Of a DNA stretch of 64,000 nucleotides, positions 5,467 through 33,625 are shown one piece after another (the first letter of the stretch is position 1; each line of letters opens with the position of its first letter). The DNA lies in contig JAHPZA010000006.1 in the NCBI GenBank assembly GCA_019058445.1, forward strand, positions 640,001-704,000. The letters run 5' to 3'. The translations under genes and the position numbers were made by a program. Below the pieces are notes generated by a model. It was given only the letters and a program-made list of their open reading frames with translations. It had not been told where the DNA came from and made no database searches. Source of the stretch: Promethearchaeota archaeon. GTDB taxonomy: Archaea > Asgardarchaeota > Lokiarchaeia > Sigyniarchaeales > SOKP01.

Positions 5467-6762
5467 CTAATATAGTTTTAAAATAATATCCATTATGTTT
5501 TGAAATTTCTCTTCTGAACCCCATATTACATATATTACGTTATCGATTGGTATTGCAACTTCTTTTATGGCAACAACCCAATCATGACCAATGTTATTTG
5601 CTATTTTACTACCCTCTTCAAACTTGAGAAGTATTGATGCTCCTAGATATTCTTGGACTTTAGTATATTCGATTTTCATCTCTTCAAAACCAGGGATGAC
5701 ACCCTCATTTTTTAATTTTTCAATCTGTTCTTCAATTTTATTATATACTAGATCTAGTTTATCACGAACTCGCAACTCATCAATTATATCTTTATCATAT
5801 TCGAAGAATATAATTCCGAAATCTTTTTCAAGCCCCATTATACCTAAAACATCAATGTCAAAGACTTCCCTACCCAAAGATCGAGAATCTTTATAACGTT
5901 CAGAGATATCTTCCCAGCCATTGCTAATGTATTCGTCTATTAACAGTCTGAAACTTTTAAGAATTTTTATCTCTTCTTCCTTTTCCTGAATTATTTTATT
6001 TACCAAGTCACCTATAGGCCTTGCTACATAAATTTGTGTACCTCTTGGAGTTTCTAAAACCTTCTCAACCCAATTTTTTTTCAAAAGCCGTTCTATTATT
6101 CTATATATTGTAGTTCTTTTTATAACTAATTCTTTATTCAAATTACCTACTGTTTCTCCTTTTTCTCCTTTATTAAGTAAGGTTAAGTAAACTCTTGCCT
6201 CATCCGGACTTAATCCAAATTTCTGCAATCCTAATGTCTGCAATATTTTGGAAGTATCAAATAAAAATTTAGTAGAAACCTCTTTGGTAAACGGATCTTC
6301 TTTACCTAATAAAACATCTGGGGCCATATAAGGTTCTTTTGTACTCATTAATCTTAATGTTCTTGAAGATAGAGTTATAACATCAATTAGCTGAACTAAT
6401 GTATCCCCTTCATCCAGAGAAATTTTACAAATTATCCCTCTTTCCTCATCTTTAAAACCAACTATAAAATCTTTTCGATTTGAAGAAAATGCAACTAGCT
6501 TGTCAAAGGTATTTTGTATAACTCTATAAATTATACCCATTATCTGAATTGTTTTTCCTTTCTCAGATTCCCATACAGAATTGATATTTTCTATATCTCC
6601 ACCAATATCCCAATTTAATGTAGAGTATATTAAATTGTATATTATTCTCTTCTTTTCTTCCTCTTCTCCCTTTTCTTCTTCAATTAATTCTATAATTGCT
6701 ACAGAATTTATATTTAAATCAGATTCCAGAAATGACTCTGCAATTTTTTCGTAGTTGGTCAT
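5467..6762 (-). CDS. Profilin-like domain fused to TrmB-family wHTH regulator and a shared C-terminal domain
   Basis: N-terminus VAII...IYSTLNWDIGGDI...VW...IQIMGIIYRVIQNTFDKLVA...IVGFKDEERGIICKI matches the Asgard profilin pattern. Centre LQKFGLSPDEARVYLTLL...RTTIYRIIERLLKKNWV is a TrmB HTH. Start at ATG 6762 is favoured by the TATA at 6802-6809; the track gives 6789. Confidence 0.8.
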   Translation of the reverse strand: MTNYEKIAESFLESDLNINSVAIIELIEEEKGEEEEKKRIIYNLIYSTLNWDIGGDIENINSVWESEKGKTIQIMGIIYRVIQNTFDKLVAFSSNRKDFIVGFKDEERGIICKISLDEGDTLVQLIDVITLSSRTLRLMSTKEPYMAPDVLLGKEDPFTKEVSTKFLFDTSKILQTLGLQKFGLSPDEARVYLTLLNKGEKGETVGNLNKELVIKRTTIYRIIERLLKKNWVEKVLETPRGTQIYVARPIGDLVNKIIQEKEEEIKILKSFRLLIDEYISNGWEDISERYKDSRSLGREVFDIDVLGIMGLEKDFGIIFFEYDKDIIDELRVRDKLDLVYNKIEEQIEKLKNEGVIPGFEEMKIEYTKVQEYLGASILLKFEEGSKIANNIGHDWVVAIKEVAIPIDNVIYVIWGSEEKFQNIMDIILKLY

Positions 6763-6869
6763 ATAGAGAGAAATTCTTTTACTTTTCATATGATCATTTC
6801 GTTATATAATTATAGTATAAATAAAAAAATAAAATAATTTACCCGCGAATTTTTTGATTTTATAGTAGG

Positions 6870-7070
6870 CTATTTGTATTTGTTTTTGAATTTTTCTTTT
6901 AAGTCTTTCAGCAAATCTTTCATACACTCGTTTTCTTTAGATCTTTGAATACGTGTAAAATCATTTAGCATTGAAAATCGCTCTGTTGGGGTTTTTTTTG
7001 CATTCTTTTGTTCATCTGCTTCATCTGATAAAAGTATGCAGGGAATACCATCTATCACTCTTATTTTCAC
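6870..7070 (-). CDS. Small hypothetical protein immediately downstream of actin
   Basis: GTG at 7070 preceded by a GGGTGAGG SD-like sequence. Ends in the amphipathic helix MKDLLKDLKEKFKNKYK. Confidence 0.6.
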   Translation of the reverse strand: MKIRVIDGIPCILLSDEADEQKNAKKTPTERFSMLNDFTRIQRSKENECMKDLLKDLKEKFKNKYK

Positions 7071-7112
7071 CAAATTCCTCACCCTAATTTGATATTTAAG
7101 ATAATTTGGATC

Positions 7113-8252
7113 TTAGAAGCATCGATGGATTACCTGAGGTCCCATTTCTTTATATTCGCGCCGAGTGATCCACATCCTATTAAAAGTCTTCAGAGATGCC
7201 AAGATCGACCCCCCGATCCACACAGAATACATTCTTTCGGGAGGGGATATGATCCTAACATCTACAGAATCCGGAATCTGTTCCTTAATTTCTTTAGCTA
7301 AACGCTCCTTGAATCCCGGATACATAGTAGAACCTCCCGAAAGAACGATATTCGAAAAAAGATCTCGCCTTAAATCTACATCACACTCGTAGATCGCCCC
7401 TACTATTAGATCATCTAATGGTTCCAGTTCTTTTCCTACAGCCGACGGATTGAAGAAACATTCGGGTGCGAGAAACCTCTCCACACCTACATTTATAGTT
7501 TCTCCATCAGGTAACATGAAACTTTTCTCCATTCCTGCCACTTTTTTGGAAAGCATTACCTCCTTTTCCGGATCTAAAGCGACATAACAGAGTTTTTCTT
7601 TTATGTCCCTGACGATCTCCATTTCGGCTGAACTCATAAGGGTCACTCCTTTTTGCCTCAATAGCCTCTGCAAATATCTTGTAACATCACGCCCTGCTAG
7701 ATCGACTCTCTCGATTGCATGACTTAACGCAAAGCCTTCAAAGATCGGTACAATATGGGAAACTCCATCACCGATATCTATGACCGTTCCCGTTACACGT
7801 CCTGAGGCATAAAGAGATAATACTGCCTGAGTTGCTACATATAATGCAGGAACGTTAAAGGTTTCAAACATGATTTCGCCCATTCTCTCCCTATTTGATC
7901 TCGGATTTAATGGAGCTTCGGTTAAAAGTACCGGATGCTCTGAAGGATCTATTCTTAAGTCTGTGTAAAATGTATAATGCCAGATTCTCTCCATAGAATT
8001 CCAGTCATCGACAATTCCATGCTCTATGGGAAAATTTAGTTTCATAACTCCCGAGAGTTCCGCAGCCTCCTCTCCGATATAATATTCTCTGGTAAAGTGT
8101 TTATACTCGGAAAGGATATTGTGATATTTTGGTGTGCCGATCATAGTAGGAAATACTGAACGAGGTTGATCCTCACCCGCATAACCGTTTTTTGAAATAC
8201 CTGTGCCGTTGTCTAAGACGATTGGTTTTGAAAGTTGCTCATGATCTGCCAT
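7113..8252 (-). CDS. Asgard actin (Lokiactin-like)
   Basis: DNGTG, FPIEHGIV, HPVLLTEAPLNP, FETFNVPALYV, QAVLSLYASGR, DIGDGVSHIVPI, LSGGSTMYPG, PPERMYSVWIGGSILASL, C-terminal IHRCF. ATG at 8252 has GGAGG upstream; the track's GTG 8267 overlaps that SD. Confidence 0.97.
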   Translation of the reverse strand: MADHEQLSKPIVLDNGTGISKNGYAGEDQPRSVFPTMIGTPKYHNILSEYKHFTREYYIGEEAAELSGVMKLNFPIEHGIVDDWNSMERIWHYTFYTDLRIDPSEHPVLLTEAPLNPRSNRERMGEIMFETFNVPALYVATQAVLSLYASGRVTGTVIDIGDGVSHIVPIFEGFALSHAIERVDLAGRDVTRYLQRLLRQKGVTLMSSAEMEIVRDIKEKLCYVALDPEKEVMLSKKVAGMEKSFMLPDGETINVGVERFLAPECFFNPSAVGKELEPLDDLIVGAIYECDVDLRRDLFSNIVLSGGSTMYPGFKERLAKEIKEQIPDSVDVRIISPPERMYSVWIGGSILASLKTFNRMWITRREYKEMGPQVIHRCF

Positions 8253-30861: not shown

Positions 30862-32625
30862 TTATCCAGTATGATTTATGATTTTAGGTTTACTTAAGAC
30901 AAATCCGCACTTCGGACAAATTCTATGTAACCGATATTCTTGCATGCTGCTGAAAAAACTTGAACCTAAGATCCCCGCAGGTAACGTAAATAATGCAACT
31001 CCTAGAAAAGCAAAACAGATGGTTAGGAATCTGCCGGCCGTTGTCACTGGATATACATCACCAAACCCAGTTGTAGTAAAGGTAACAATGCCGAACCATA
31101 AAGTTGCTGGAATACTTGCAAATTTTTCAGGCTGGGCATTATGTTCAAAATAATAGATTGCTGTAGAACTGAATATGAGAAATAGGATACATATGAAAAT
31201 TGTGCTTAAAAATTCTCTTTTAGTATCTTTGAATATTAAGCCAGATATACTAAATACGTCTATAAAATGTCCAACTTTAAATACTACAACCATCAATAGA
31301 ATTAAGAAAAACTGCCGCGTTGTAGGTACTAACTGACCCGGAATTAACATAAGATACAAAGCAATAATCACGATAACATCCACTATAGCGAGTGGACTTT
31401 TGACGAAATTCCATTTCCCTTGAACAGGATCTTGATATTCTTCCCGTTCTGAACCTTCACAGCTCCAAAATCGTAGAGCATATTCTGAGGTAAACACTAT
31501 TATAGAAATTATATACACAGTATTTAATACAGATCTTAGTTCTTCGGATAGTATAGGATTAGTTTCAACCATAATTGCCAACACATTAAGCGTTATAAAA
31601 GTCATAAAGAAAATAAAGACCAATAACTGTCCCAAACTTCTAGGAAAAGCGAATTGCACTAAATCATAATATCTACGCTTGGTTTGTTGCTGGGGTGTTA
31701 ATTTTGGTAATTCCTTAGCTTTTTCTGCTTCTAAGGCTTGTTTAATTATCTTAGGAAGCCTCCCCCTCCTTTTCTTATACAAGTCCCTAAACAATGCTTC
31801 TTTTTGAATTGTGGTATTACAATTTGGACAAACCTCATACTGTGGATTTCTTTCTCTAAGTTCATCAATATATCCTGAACCAATGACAGATGCAGGTAAT
31901 AAAAACAATGTGATACCTAAGACTGATATAACTGCTGATATTATTTTACCCATAACGGTCTTCGGAACCATCTCTCCGTATCCGATTGTGAAAAGATTTA
32001 TTGCTGTAAACCACATTGAACTAAAAAGATTCGTAAATATATCAGGTTGGGCATCATGTTCTGCTATATACATAAGTAATGACCCGAAAAACATTAACAG
32101 CAACGATAAAATTAAGGTAATTAATAGTTCTTCTTTTTTACGTCTGATAACGCCAAAAATTATTTCAAATGATTCAGAATACCGAATTAATTTAAGGAGC
32201 GCAATTACGCGAAGTAGTCTTATACCCTCCATCCATTTGTATTCAGCAGGTATGATTAACGCTAATAAAAATAGAATAACACTTGCGAAATCAATTATAC
32301 CCTTAAAGTTTATCATATATCCTAAGCTTTTCAAATTATTATCTTGGTATTTTGGATTTATATCACATGTCCAAAACCGTAATATAAATTCTATGGTAAA
32401 AATTACTACTGAAATAACTTCAATTAGAATAAAAACGATGGAATATCTTAGCACTAAATCTTCATCAGTTTCTAAGATTGTTATAAGACCACTTATTAAG
32501 CTAGCACATACTAGTAAAAATGCCAGAAAACGCGCTGAACCTGTTTTTGATTCGGGAAAATTTAAATTTTTAAAAATCTGCTCTTTATATTTTCGGATTC
32601 TTTCCTTTTTGAGTTCTTTCGTCAT
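30862..32625 (-). CDS. Tandem-duplicated (2x6TM) voltage-gated-type potassium channel
   Basis: Two complete Ion_trans repeats with filters TIGYGE and TTGFGD, each followed by LPA..(I/L)GS and CPxC. Confidence 0.9.
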   Translation of the reverse strand: MTKELKKERIRKYKEQIFKNLNFPESKTGSARFLAFLLVCASLISGLITILETDEDLVLRYSIVFILIEVISVVIFTIEFILRFWTCDINPKYQDNNLKSLGYMINFKGIIDFASVILFLLALIIPAEYKWMEGIRLLRVIALLKLIRYSESFEIIFGVIRRKKEELLITLILSLLLMFFGSLLMYIAEHDAQPDIFTNLFSSMWFTAINLFTIGYGEMVPKTVMGKIISAVISVLGITLFLLPASVIGSGYIDELRERNPQYEVCPNCNTTIQKEALFRDLYKKRRGRLPKIIKQALEAEKAKELPKLTPQQQTKRRYYDLVQFAFPRSLGQLLVFIFFMTFITLNVLAIMVETNPILSEELRSVLNTVYIISIIVFTSEYALRFWSCEGSEREEYQDPVQGKWNFVKSPLAIVDVIVIIALYLMLIPGQLVPTTRQFFLILLMVVVFKVGHFIDVFSISGLIFKDTKREFLSTIFICILFLIFSSTAIYYFEHNAQPEKFASIPATLWFGIVTFTTTGFGDVYPVTTAGRFLTICFAFLGVALFTLPAGILGSSFFSSMQEYRLHRICPKCGFVLSKPKIINHTG

Positions 32626-32845: not shown

Positions 32846-33625
32846 ATGATAACGTGGATTTTAGGATCAATTCTTATTATTTGGTGTTTATATAATAGAT
32901 TCGGTAGAGAGGATGGGTATGTGAAAGGATATCCGCTTGGAATGCCAAAGGGTTCAGTACGAGCATTAATTGCTATTTCAGTGGTAGCATTTCCCTTCAG
33001 TTATTTAATTGAGGGACAAGAGATCCCGAGTGCTATTACCAGCGCGATATTCATCCTCGTTGCTTTTTATTTCGAGACACGAAAAGCTAAAAAAGAATTA
33101 CTTTTAGAACTTATAAATGACGTGAGATATCCTGAGACTCCTAAGGAAAATGTGATTTATCCTCTCTATTTGCCAAAATATTCTGTAAGAATTACACTTG
33201 TAACGATGTTGGTATTAGTATTGATTATTAATGCATATGGACCAATGGTGCCTTTTGAAACAACAAATACTTTAATGGATATTTTGTTGATAATTAGCTT
33301 TTTTATTCTTGGCTCGATTTTTAAAAGGATCAGTAATATTCGAGAAAATAAAAGAAATAAACGGCTAATTAACTTGAAATTAGCAGAAGACGCTTCAATT
33401 TCAAATGAGGGAATAATTGAATATATATCTTCTCAAGAAAAAAGTAAAATAAAGAGAAAAGGGAAAAACTGTCTTTCCGTAATAACATTAATTGCTATTT
33501 TTATTGCATTGATTTTATACACGGTTGATATTGATTATGAGATGCTAACTTTGCTATTCTATGCTTTTACTTTACGTACTACATTATTCCTATTCATAAA
33601 TATATATTATGGTTATAGAGATTAA
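32846..33625 (+). CDS. Membrane protein with internal repeat (PLGMPKGSVRA / PLYLPKYSVRI)
   Basis: Multiple TM segments and a repeated motif. Confidence 0.75.
   Translation: MITWILGSILIIWCLYNRFGREDGYVKGYPLGMPKGSVRALIAISVVAFPFSYLIEGQEIPSAITSAIFILVAFYFETRKAKKELLLELINDVRYPETPKENVIYPLYLPKYSVRITLVTMLVLVLIINAYGPMVPFETTNTLMDILLIISFFILGSIFKRISNIRENKRNKRLINLKLAEDASISNEGIIEYISSQEKSKIKRKGKNCLSVITLIAIFIALILYTVDIDYEMLTLLFYAFTLRTTLFLFINIYYGYRD

Follow-up and report, generated by a model that had tools for sequence, protein, structure and literature searches.

The channel gene and its two repeats

The window analysed here is a stretch of 64,000 nucleotides from the genome of a Promethearchaeota archaeon (positions 640,001 to 704,000 of contig JAHPZA010000006.1). 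Its minus strand carries, at 30862..32625, a gene for a potassium channel subunit in which two complete units of six transmembrane (TM) helices, S1 to S6, follow each other in one chain (2x6TM). According to the list of open reading frames (ORFs) and the translation, the gene is a single ORF of 587 amino acids without internal stop. Its features are listed below, with residue numbers referring to the protein.

30862..32625, minus strand: whole gene, tandem 2x6TM K+ channel subunit with two pore loops, assigned from the ORF and Pfam; apparently monocistronic
31795..32601, minus strand: repeat I (residues 9-277), with pre-S1 helix, S1-S6, pore loop and CPxC tail, delimited by the single-subunit hidden Markov model (HMM) and the helices of the AlphaFold2 (AF2) model
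32179..32235, minus strand: S4 of repeat I (residues 131-149), from the column profile compared with single-subunit proteins
31975..31989, minus strand: selectivity filter I, TIGYG (T213-G217); 24 homologues show no variation at T213, G215, Y216 and G217
31819..31830, minus strand: CPNC knuckle I (C266-C269), 53 residues past filter I; C266 and C269 are invariant
31696..31794, minus strand: cytoplasmic inter-repeat linker (residues 278-310), columns 430-470 of the homologue alignment; its length varies among homologues
30883..31695, minus strand: repeat II (residues 311-581), with pre-S1 helix, S1-S6, pore loop and CPxC tail, delimited by the single-subunit HMM
31267..31317, minus strand: S4 of repeat II (residues 437-453), from the alignment and the column profile
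31060..31074, minus strand: selectivity filter II, TTGFG (T518-G522); T515, T517, T518, G520 and G522 are invariant
30907..30918, minus strand: CPKC knuckle II (C570-C573), 52 residues past filter II; C570, P571 and C573 are invariant

Pfam identifies two Ion_trans domains in the protein (residues 33-252 and 338-559), each with an Ion_trans_2 pore. When each half is scanned alone, Ion_trans (PF00520) scores 76.3 and 83.1 bits, compared to a gathering threshold of 25 bits. Ion_trans_2 (PF07885) scores of 48.6 and 56.1 bits, together with a T-x-G-Y/F-G filter in each repeat, place both pores among the K+-channel P-loops. The two repeats align with each other from end to end, both CPxC motifs included, at 26% identity (E 9e-35). 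An initial annotation, made from the letters of the window, had described two S1-S6 repeats on one chain. This architecture is confirmed by the paired domains and the end-to-end alignment, far beyond chance, and the S4, filter and CPxC motifs quoted there all lie where they had been placed.

The chain ends 14 residues beyond C573, and only the 33-residue linker follows repeat I. No RCK domain was found by Pfam in the 587-aa protein. The models for the MVP-type hyperpolarisation-activated archaeal K+ channel (NF040645) and the Kch-type channel (NF007828) gave 77.7 and 46 bits, respectively, under their cut-offs of 300 (curated) and 425. In the homologues P0013, P0015 and P0023, a C2H2-zinc-finger-like motif (C-x2-C ... 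H-x3-H) stands before repeat I; the window protein has none.

Conservation and distribution

A word-indexed search retrieved about 40 full-length homologues with 40-84% identity, located on independent contigs from NCBI, JGI, ENA and Logan. Their sources are named Promethearchaeota, Hermodarchaeota, Hodarchaeota or Thorarchaeota. Across 24 aligned members, all four cysteines, K145, R148, Y149, H453 and the key filter residues are invariant. An intact two-repeat ORF is present in 17 of 400 Asgard species genomes, all from one order, within which it is patchy. Sixteen of these carriers belong to the window's own family, and the remaining one, at 33% identity, to a sister family of the same order. 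A K+-channel pore was found in 16 of the 135 species genomes of the window's family, and each time it was the tandem gene; the other 119 have none. Because it is present in just 16 of these 135 genomes, the tandem channel is an accessory and not a housekeeping trait.

A two-repeat ORF might also be produced if assembly or gene calling joined two adjacent single-subunit genes, a possibility that the initial annotation had itself raised. Unfused, related genes do lie next to each other in one archaeal genome, that of a Methanothrix (described below). The reading frame of the window gene is, however, continuous on a 1.28-Mb contig, and the fused ORF recurs in the 17 species genomes and in about 40 protein clusters from the four sources. 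The linker is conserved among close relatives. Among further contigs, which were short and of low depth, one piece bridges the junction (31656-31911, from a second sample), and it is identical there. With the same fused ORF in 17 genomes and on independent contigs, the gene is not an artefact, and we regard the chance of such an origin as practically negligible.

Descent from a prokaryotic single-subunit family

HMMER, run exhaustively on 1.84 billion representatives, returned 16,565 matches, mostly single-repeat proteins of ~270 aa. This single-subunit family is unnamed; its members carry database labels such as “ion transporter” or “voltage-gated potassium channel”. Among the genome-record matches listed, the single-repeat proteins are overwhelmingly bacterial, from, e.g., Alteromonas, Psychrobacter, Latescibacterota and Chloroflexota. 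In the HMM built from them, positions 3-269 of 271 are matched by repeat I (258 bits) and positions 3-267 by repeat II (240 bits). Both repeats are thus end-to-end members of this family, with the CPxC motif at the spacing listed above. In 72 of 108 single-repeat relatives, a CPxC motif, usually CPHC, stands 50-75 residues past the filter. Since the single subunits already carry it at the same place, the knuckle is ancestral and not specific to the tandem protein.

The tandem protein shares with the single subunits the pre-S1 helix, S1-S6, the TxGYGD filter, the S6 motif LPAGILGSGF and the distance from CPxC to filter. The single subunits are presumed homotetramers with a full RRRRKR S4, whereas the tandem chain holds two diverged copies, with reduced and unequal S4 charge and a GYG/GFG pair of filters.

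Among solved structures, those of the KCNQ (Kv7) channels KCNQ1, KCNQ2, KCNQ4 and KCNQ5 (PDB 7byl, 9j38, 8j02 and 5vms) are the closest, both by sequence and by Foldseek. A bacterial single-subunit protein aligns with KCNQ5 over residues 2-256, from the pre-S1 helix to past S6 (E 2.5e-35). The best solved relatives of repeat II are KCNQ4/5/2/1, with E about 1e-27 (KCNQ4, 8e-28), and those of repeat I are Kv2.1 and Kv1.2. The bacterial single subunits are nearer to KCNQ than the Asgard repeats are. The alignments with KCNQ4 and KCNQ5 and the conserved LPAGILGS in S6, which we take to correspond to the PAG motif of Kv7 channels, assign the protein to the KCNQ/Kv7 core. The pre-S1 helix, a PAG-type S6 and the S2-S3 linker pattern R-x-W-S ... 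Y ... G-R/K-x-x-F ... P ... I-D are common to both. Unlike KCNQ, the Asgard protein is a tandem chain, and the KCNQ-type cytoplasmic part after S6, i.e., the calmodulin-binding helices A/B and the C-terminal coiled coil, was not found in it.

A repeat-wise phylogeny, suggested as a check in the initial annotation, was calculated in IQ-TREE (LG+C20 PMSF, quick search, SH-aLRT supports) as two trees, one with 127 repeats and single subunits and one with a 65-row subset. The repeats I group in one clade (SH-aLRT 92 and 95 in the two trees), the repeats II in a second (89 and 90). With the single subunits left outside, these clades are sister groups (82 and 63), and their internal branching is mirrored. 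Sister clades with mirrored branching indicate one duplication, and the pattern fits a single duplication-fusion followed by co-divergence of repeats I and II.

In the Methanothrix sp. metagenome-assembled chromosome (L011), two unfused genes of the same channel family lie next to each other, at 5995-6795 and 6848-7681. The first encodes a degenerate filter (TTVGDNF) and has no CPxC; the second has TTVGYGD and CPHC. These two products may form a heteromeric pair.

Two unequal voltage sensors

In the column profile, the S4 ladder of the single subunits reads RRRRKR. In the crown group of the tandem family, S4 of repeat I has become x-R-R-(V/A)-K-R, represented in the window protein by E133, R136, R139, A142, K145 and R148. 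Four of the six ancestral basic positions are therefore retained (R136, R139, K145 and R148), with E133 in place of R1 and A142 in place of R4. The crown-group S4 of repeat II is x-x-(R/L)-V-K-H, here R437, L441, L444, V447, K450 and H453. It retains R437 at the R1 position and K450 at K5, while H453 replaces R6; R3 is kept by most homologues. H453 is invariant in the 24-sequence alignment, where it lies within a conserved K-I/V-G-H-F, and histidine occupies this column in 95% of 45 repeats II. Both repeats retain a charge-transfer centre made up of F-x-x-E in S2 and an aspartate in S3 (F76, E79 and D112; F378, E381 and D416). The outer acidic residue of S2 is E69 in repeat I and has been lost from repeat II.

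The initial annotation had stated that S4 of repeat I keeps its gating charges and that S4 of repeat II has lost them. The first statement holds for four basic residues but not for the R1 and R4 positions. The second is right in that S4 of repeat II is charge-poor and unequal to that of repeat I; it is not charge-free, as R437, K450 and H453 remain. To speak of only one working voltage sensor, as was also done there, goes too far. Sensor II has its charge-transfer centre, K450 and an invariant histidine, and its conservation is higher than that of sensor I. Among 36 crown members, conservation in sensors II and I is 0.57 versus 0.34 for S1 and 0.50 versus 0.37 for S2, and in 481 of 630 pairs repeat II shows the higher conservation. 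This higher conservation indicates that sensor II is under selection and is not decaying.

The deep-branching members differ from the crown group. Full RRRR ladders are found in both repeats of P0063, and in repeat II alone of P0067 and P0070. The asymmetry in sensor charge thus evolved after the fusion and is a crown-group trait. P0063 belongs to the genome of an Asgard archaeon from the same order, and the contig of P0067 carries a gene for an Arf/Ras-type small GTPase typical of Asgard genomes. Further deep members, P0060, P0062 and P0064-66, are of metagenomic origin. Loss of R4 was considered as a shared derived character of both repeats and was rejected, as P0063, P0067 and P0070 still carry R4.

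Selectivity filters and CPxC knuckles

The two filters differ, as had been noted in the initial annotation (TIGYG in repeat I, TTGFG in repeat II), and both are of the canonical K+ type. At position 521 of filter II, phenylalanine is found in 71% and tyrosine in 22% of the repeats II. The same asymmetry, GYG in loop 1 and GFG in loop 2, is known from the two-pore-domain K+ (K2P) channels of animals (PMC13715775).

The CPxC motif noted after each S6 is present, as CPNC and CPKC, and its four cysteines are invariant in the 24 homologues. It occurs in both repeats of 43 of 45 family members, in neither repeat of two (P0067 and P0070), and never in one repeat alone (0 of 45). This both-or-neither pattern is compatible with two knuckles that may act together. 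The AF2 model predicts a beta-hairpin at each knuckle (263-265/272-274 and 567-569/576-578). Zinc-ribbon models give half-matches to single knuckles, under threshold: Zn_Ribbon_1 scores 15.3 compared to the required 25 bits, A2L 14.9 and TFIIB 12.8. A complex prediction of the two S6-end and CPxC tails (residues 236-290 and 541-587, supplied with alignments) with zinc yielded an ipSAE of 0.03, which is evidence neither way.

Predicted structure and comparison with known two-repeat channels

The AF2 model, calculated from a 24-row alignment, contains twelve TM helices and two pore helices (predicted local distance difference test, pLDDT, 80.6; predicted template modelling score, pTM, 0.72). The linker has a pLDDT of 57-61. 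Foldseek returned KCNQ, Kv4 and Kv1 as top matches of the single repeats. These superpose on Kv4.2 with a Z of 17, a root-mean-square deviation (rmsd) of 2.4-2.7 Å and 23% identity, and on Kv and KCNQ structures overall with 22-28% identity and an rmsd of 2.4-3 Å. For the whole chain, structural re-alignment gave the highest Z (18-21) with the two-pore channels (TPCs) TPC2, AtTPC1, TPC3 and TPC1, over 445-490 residues, at 10-14% identity and an rmsd of 8-12 Å. The predicted fold is a TPC-like build out of Kv7-like parts.

With TPC1-3 (PDB 5e1j, 6c96, 6nq0, 6v1q and 8ouo), the Asgard protein shares the 2x6TM chain; TPCs dimerise to a pseudo-tetramer and also have unequal sensors. In contrast to the tandem protein, TPCs have non-GYG filters that pass Na+ and Ca2+. 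The Asgard protein is only 10-14% identical to them, lacks EF-hands and is of independent origin. It has the two 6TM repeats of a TPC, and neither the non-GYG filter nor a sequence closer to TPCs than to Kv channels. With K2P channels, whose pore is dimeric, it shares two pore loops per chain, with GYG in loop 1 and GFG in loop 2. With 12 TM helices and two S1-S4 domains, the tandem protein differs from K2P subunits, which have 4 TM helices, are devoid of voltage-sensor domains and carry an extracellular cap in animals. The protein is thus not a K2P channel, as only the presence of two pore loops per chain is common to both.

Close parallels in design are the eukaryotic tandem Kv-like channels (PMC7576140) and the 12-TM K+ channels of Paramecium (PMC2234077), which were compared with the Asgard family through their published descriptions. 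In them, too, a single chain carries two Kv-like 6TM repeats whose pores are of the K+ type. Like those of the Asgard family, their repeats are about 30% identical or less, differ in the R/K content of S4 and form separate, co-evolving clades. Several independent origins have been described for them, none in prokaryotes (PMC7576140, PMC2234077).

Could the Asgard family be a prokaryotic ancestor, or a homologue by descent, of the TPCs or of these eukaryotic tandem Kv-like and 12-TM K+ channels? The common 2x6TM topology, the Asgard host and the whole-chain Z values would fit such a descent. It is difficult to reconcile, however, with the low identity and high rmsd to TPCs compared to those with Kv and KCNQ, and with the GYG/GFG filters of K+ type, unlike those of TPCs. 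The two repeats are, moreover, sisters inside a bacterial-type single-subunit family, the family is confined to one Asgard order with a patchy presence there, and bacterial single subunits outscore the Asgard repeats against KCNQ. In the tree, no other multi-repeat protein of the top 150 HMMER matches groups with the Asgard tandem. Descent of this kind is considered highly improbable. The independent Asgard route proposed in the initial annotation is borne out, both by the nesting of the repeats in the prokaryotic single-subunit family and by their identity to Kv7, Kv4 and Kv1 (22-28%, versus 10-14% to TPCs). In sum, the tandem is real, conserved and rare: a Kv7-like K+ channel of two repeats, found in Asgard archaea and of an origin independent of TPCs.

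Proposed assembly and gating

It is likely that the protein is a 12-TM, two-pore-loop K+ channel subunit that arose by a single duplication of a KCNQ (Kv7)-like 6TM-CPxC subunit and works as a dimer with a division of sensor roles. Its precursor would be a prokaryotic KCNQ-like subunit already bearing CPxC, doubled either by internal duplication or by tandem-gene duplication and subsequent fusion. Two chains would then assemble with repeats I and II alternating around one pore and like repeats diagonal to each other, as in the dimers of K2P and TPC channels. The window genome, which is 92.6% complete, contains no second P-loop, Ion_trans or Ion_trans_2 gene, and hence no heteromeric partner subunit. 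The filter of such a dimer would be formed by two TIGYG and two TTGFG loops. It would be pseudo-tetrameric with two-fold symmetry, and it should be K+-selective.

Sensor I is likelier to be mobile, as a weak voltage sensor, because of its four basic residues and intact charge-transfer centre. Sensor II is probably fixed in one conformation, because it has K450 at K5, H453 for R6 and no outer acidic residue. It might serve as a conserved structural module, or as one sensitive to pH or a ligand. The knuckles, about 14-16 residues past each S6, would probably pair repeat I with repeat II into a Cys4 metal site beneath the gate.

Several points weigh against this interpretation, at least in part. 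The sisterhood of the repeat I and II clades is weakly to moderately supported. That sensor II is the better conserved of the two is hard to square with a mere “dead sensor”. The division of labour between the sensors is not generalisable to the whole family, because in deep members the full ladder occurs in both repeats or is restricted to repeat II. The polarity of the voltage dependence is beyond what sequence can give. Finally, the Pfam zinc-ribbon matches fall far below cut-off, so the putative metal binding is argued from the motif itself.

A different role for the sensors has to be weighed as well. Both could be voltage-insensitive relics or regulatory modules, in a channel that provides a leak-type (K2P-like) conductance or is gated by cytosolic pH, redox or metal via H453 and the CPxC motifs. 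The R4 position is lost in both S4 helices of the window protein and R1 also in sensor I, and H453, within its conserved motif, and the four cysteines are invariant. Also, no match to TrkH, KdpA or Kup was found in the window's own genome, so a channel open at the resting potential would help K+ equilibration. Against such a role, the four basic residues of sensor I stand at a three-residue spacing and, with F76, E79, D112 and the outer E69, make up a sensor that is complete by Kv standards. KCNQ1 likewise functions despite a neutral residue in its ladder. We consider this alternative rather unlikely compared to a dimer with divided sensor roles.

A more far-reaching idea concerns the knuckles. 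As single subunits have one knuckle each, any Cys4 site must originally have lain between subunits. Each CPxC might then be a half-site, and the knuckles of neighbouring subunits would complete a Cys4 zinc or redox site beneath the gate, which would make the homotetramer a dimer of dimers. The resulting two-fold symmetry might be what has repeatedly favoured tandem fusion, both in the Asgard family and in three or more further multi-repeat lineages of independent origin. Within the Asgard channel, the site between repeats I and II would couple the cytosolic redox or metal status to a K+ pore with a division of labour between its two types of sensor. This proposal is speculative, and we would not expect it to hold in this form. 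If true, it would provide a prokaryotic, tractable model for the evolution of asymmetric multi-domain channels such as TPC, Nav and Cav.

Genomic setting and K+ transport

The channel gene is separated by a 208-bp gap from a downstream NMO gene, and its upstream neighbour is divergent. This neighbour, at 32846-33625 on the plus strand, encodes a 259-aa multi-pass membrane protein without Pfam match. It adjoins the channel gene in both same-genus genomes that were checked (L086 and L087) and lies 4 kb off in another genus (L089). The remaining neighbours (NMO, a methyltransferase, an aldo/keto reductase and an alpha/beta hydrolase) seem unrelated, and no gene-neighbourhood partner is conserved across genera. 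No RNA run was listed among the public sequencing runs that contain the gene.

Across the window's Asgard family, a scan for TrkH had no match in any of the 135 species genomes. Outside the window, at G000:C6:1097688-1098416, a 373-aa ORF has two TrkA_N (RCK/KTN) domains, in a genome without detectable TrkH/KtrB partner.

Other multi-repeat channels

Multi-repeat K+ channels of separate origin are also in the HMMER list. They comprise P0205, P0073 together with P0061 (four repeats), and P0082 together with P0089 (four repeats). P0061 (L085:160-4641, 1493 aa) and P0089 (L098:153-5399, 1748 aa) are single metagenome ORFs with four complete 6TM repeats. A GYG K+ filter is present in every repeat, so that both resemble four-domain K+-channel proteins. 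P0061 and the two-repeat P0073 have almost identical repeats, pointing to recent serial duplication.

P0205 (L097:6656-9754, 1032 aa) is an independent two-repeat 6TM K+ channel in which a linker of some 250 aa joins two repeats that are most closely related to each other (SH-aLRT 100). Its contig is densely packed with prokaryote-like genes, including one for an AddB-like PDDEXK_1 protein. A further layout, with extra S1-S4 voltage-sensor-like modules before a full 6TM unit, was seen in P0076, P0080, P0115 and P0178, with one such module each, and in P0204, with three.

Significance

Two-pore-domain K+ channels, with 12 TM helices in Paramecium, 8 in fungi and 4 in animals, were not found in a survey of 270 prokaryotic genomes (Loukin et al. 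2005; PMC2234077). More recently, tandem K+ channel architecture was stated to be absent from bacteria, and K2P channels are described as unknown in prokaryotes (Rauh et al. 2026; PMC13715775). The two-repeat 6TM design has been treated as a eukaryotic step towards the four-domain Nav and Cav channels (PMC5150636). The initial annotation had left room for an architecture already widespread and described in prokaryotes. It is rare, with 17 carriers among 400 Asgard genomes, and literature searches turned up no account of this Asgard tandem family or of any 2x6TM K+ channel from archaea or bacteria.

The two-repeat step has thus been taken independently in Asgard archaea, while surveys and reviews give this design from eukaryotes only. 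The ancestor family can be identified and intermediates are visible, from deep members with full ladders in both repeats to the crown group with its unequal sensors and GYG/GFG filters. This offers a small, intron-free system for following the passage from a symmetric tetramer to an asymmetric pseudo-tetramer. It also allows the role of a conserved, charge-poor voltage-sensor domain to be probed, as well as the purpose of the C-terminal CPxC tail that is very widespread in prokaryotic KCNQ-like channels. For the archaea themselves, the tandem gene represents the only type of K+ channel in an Asgard family of 135 species.

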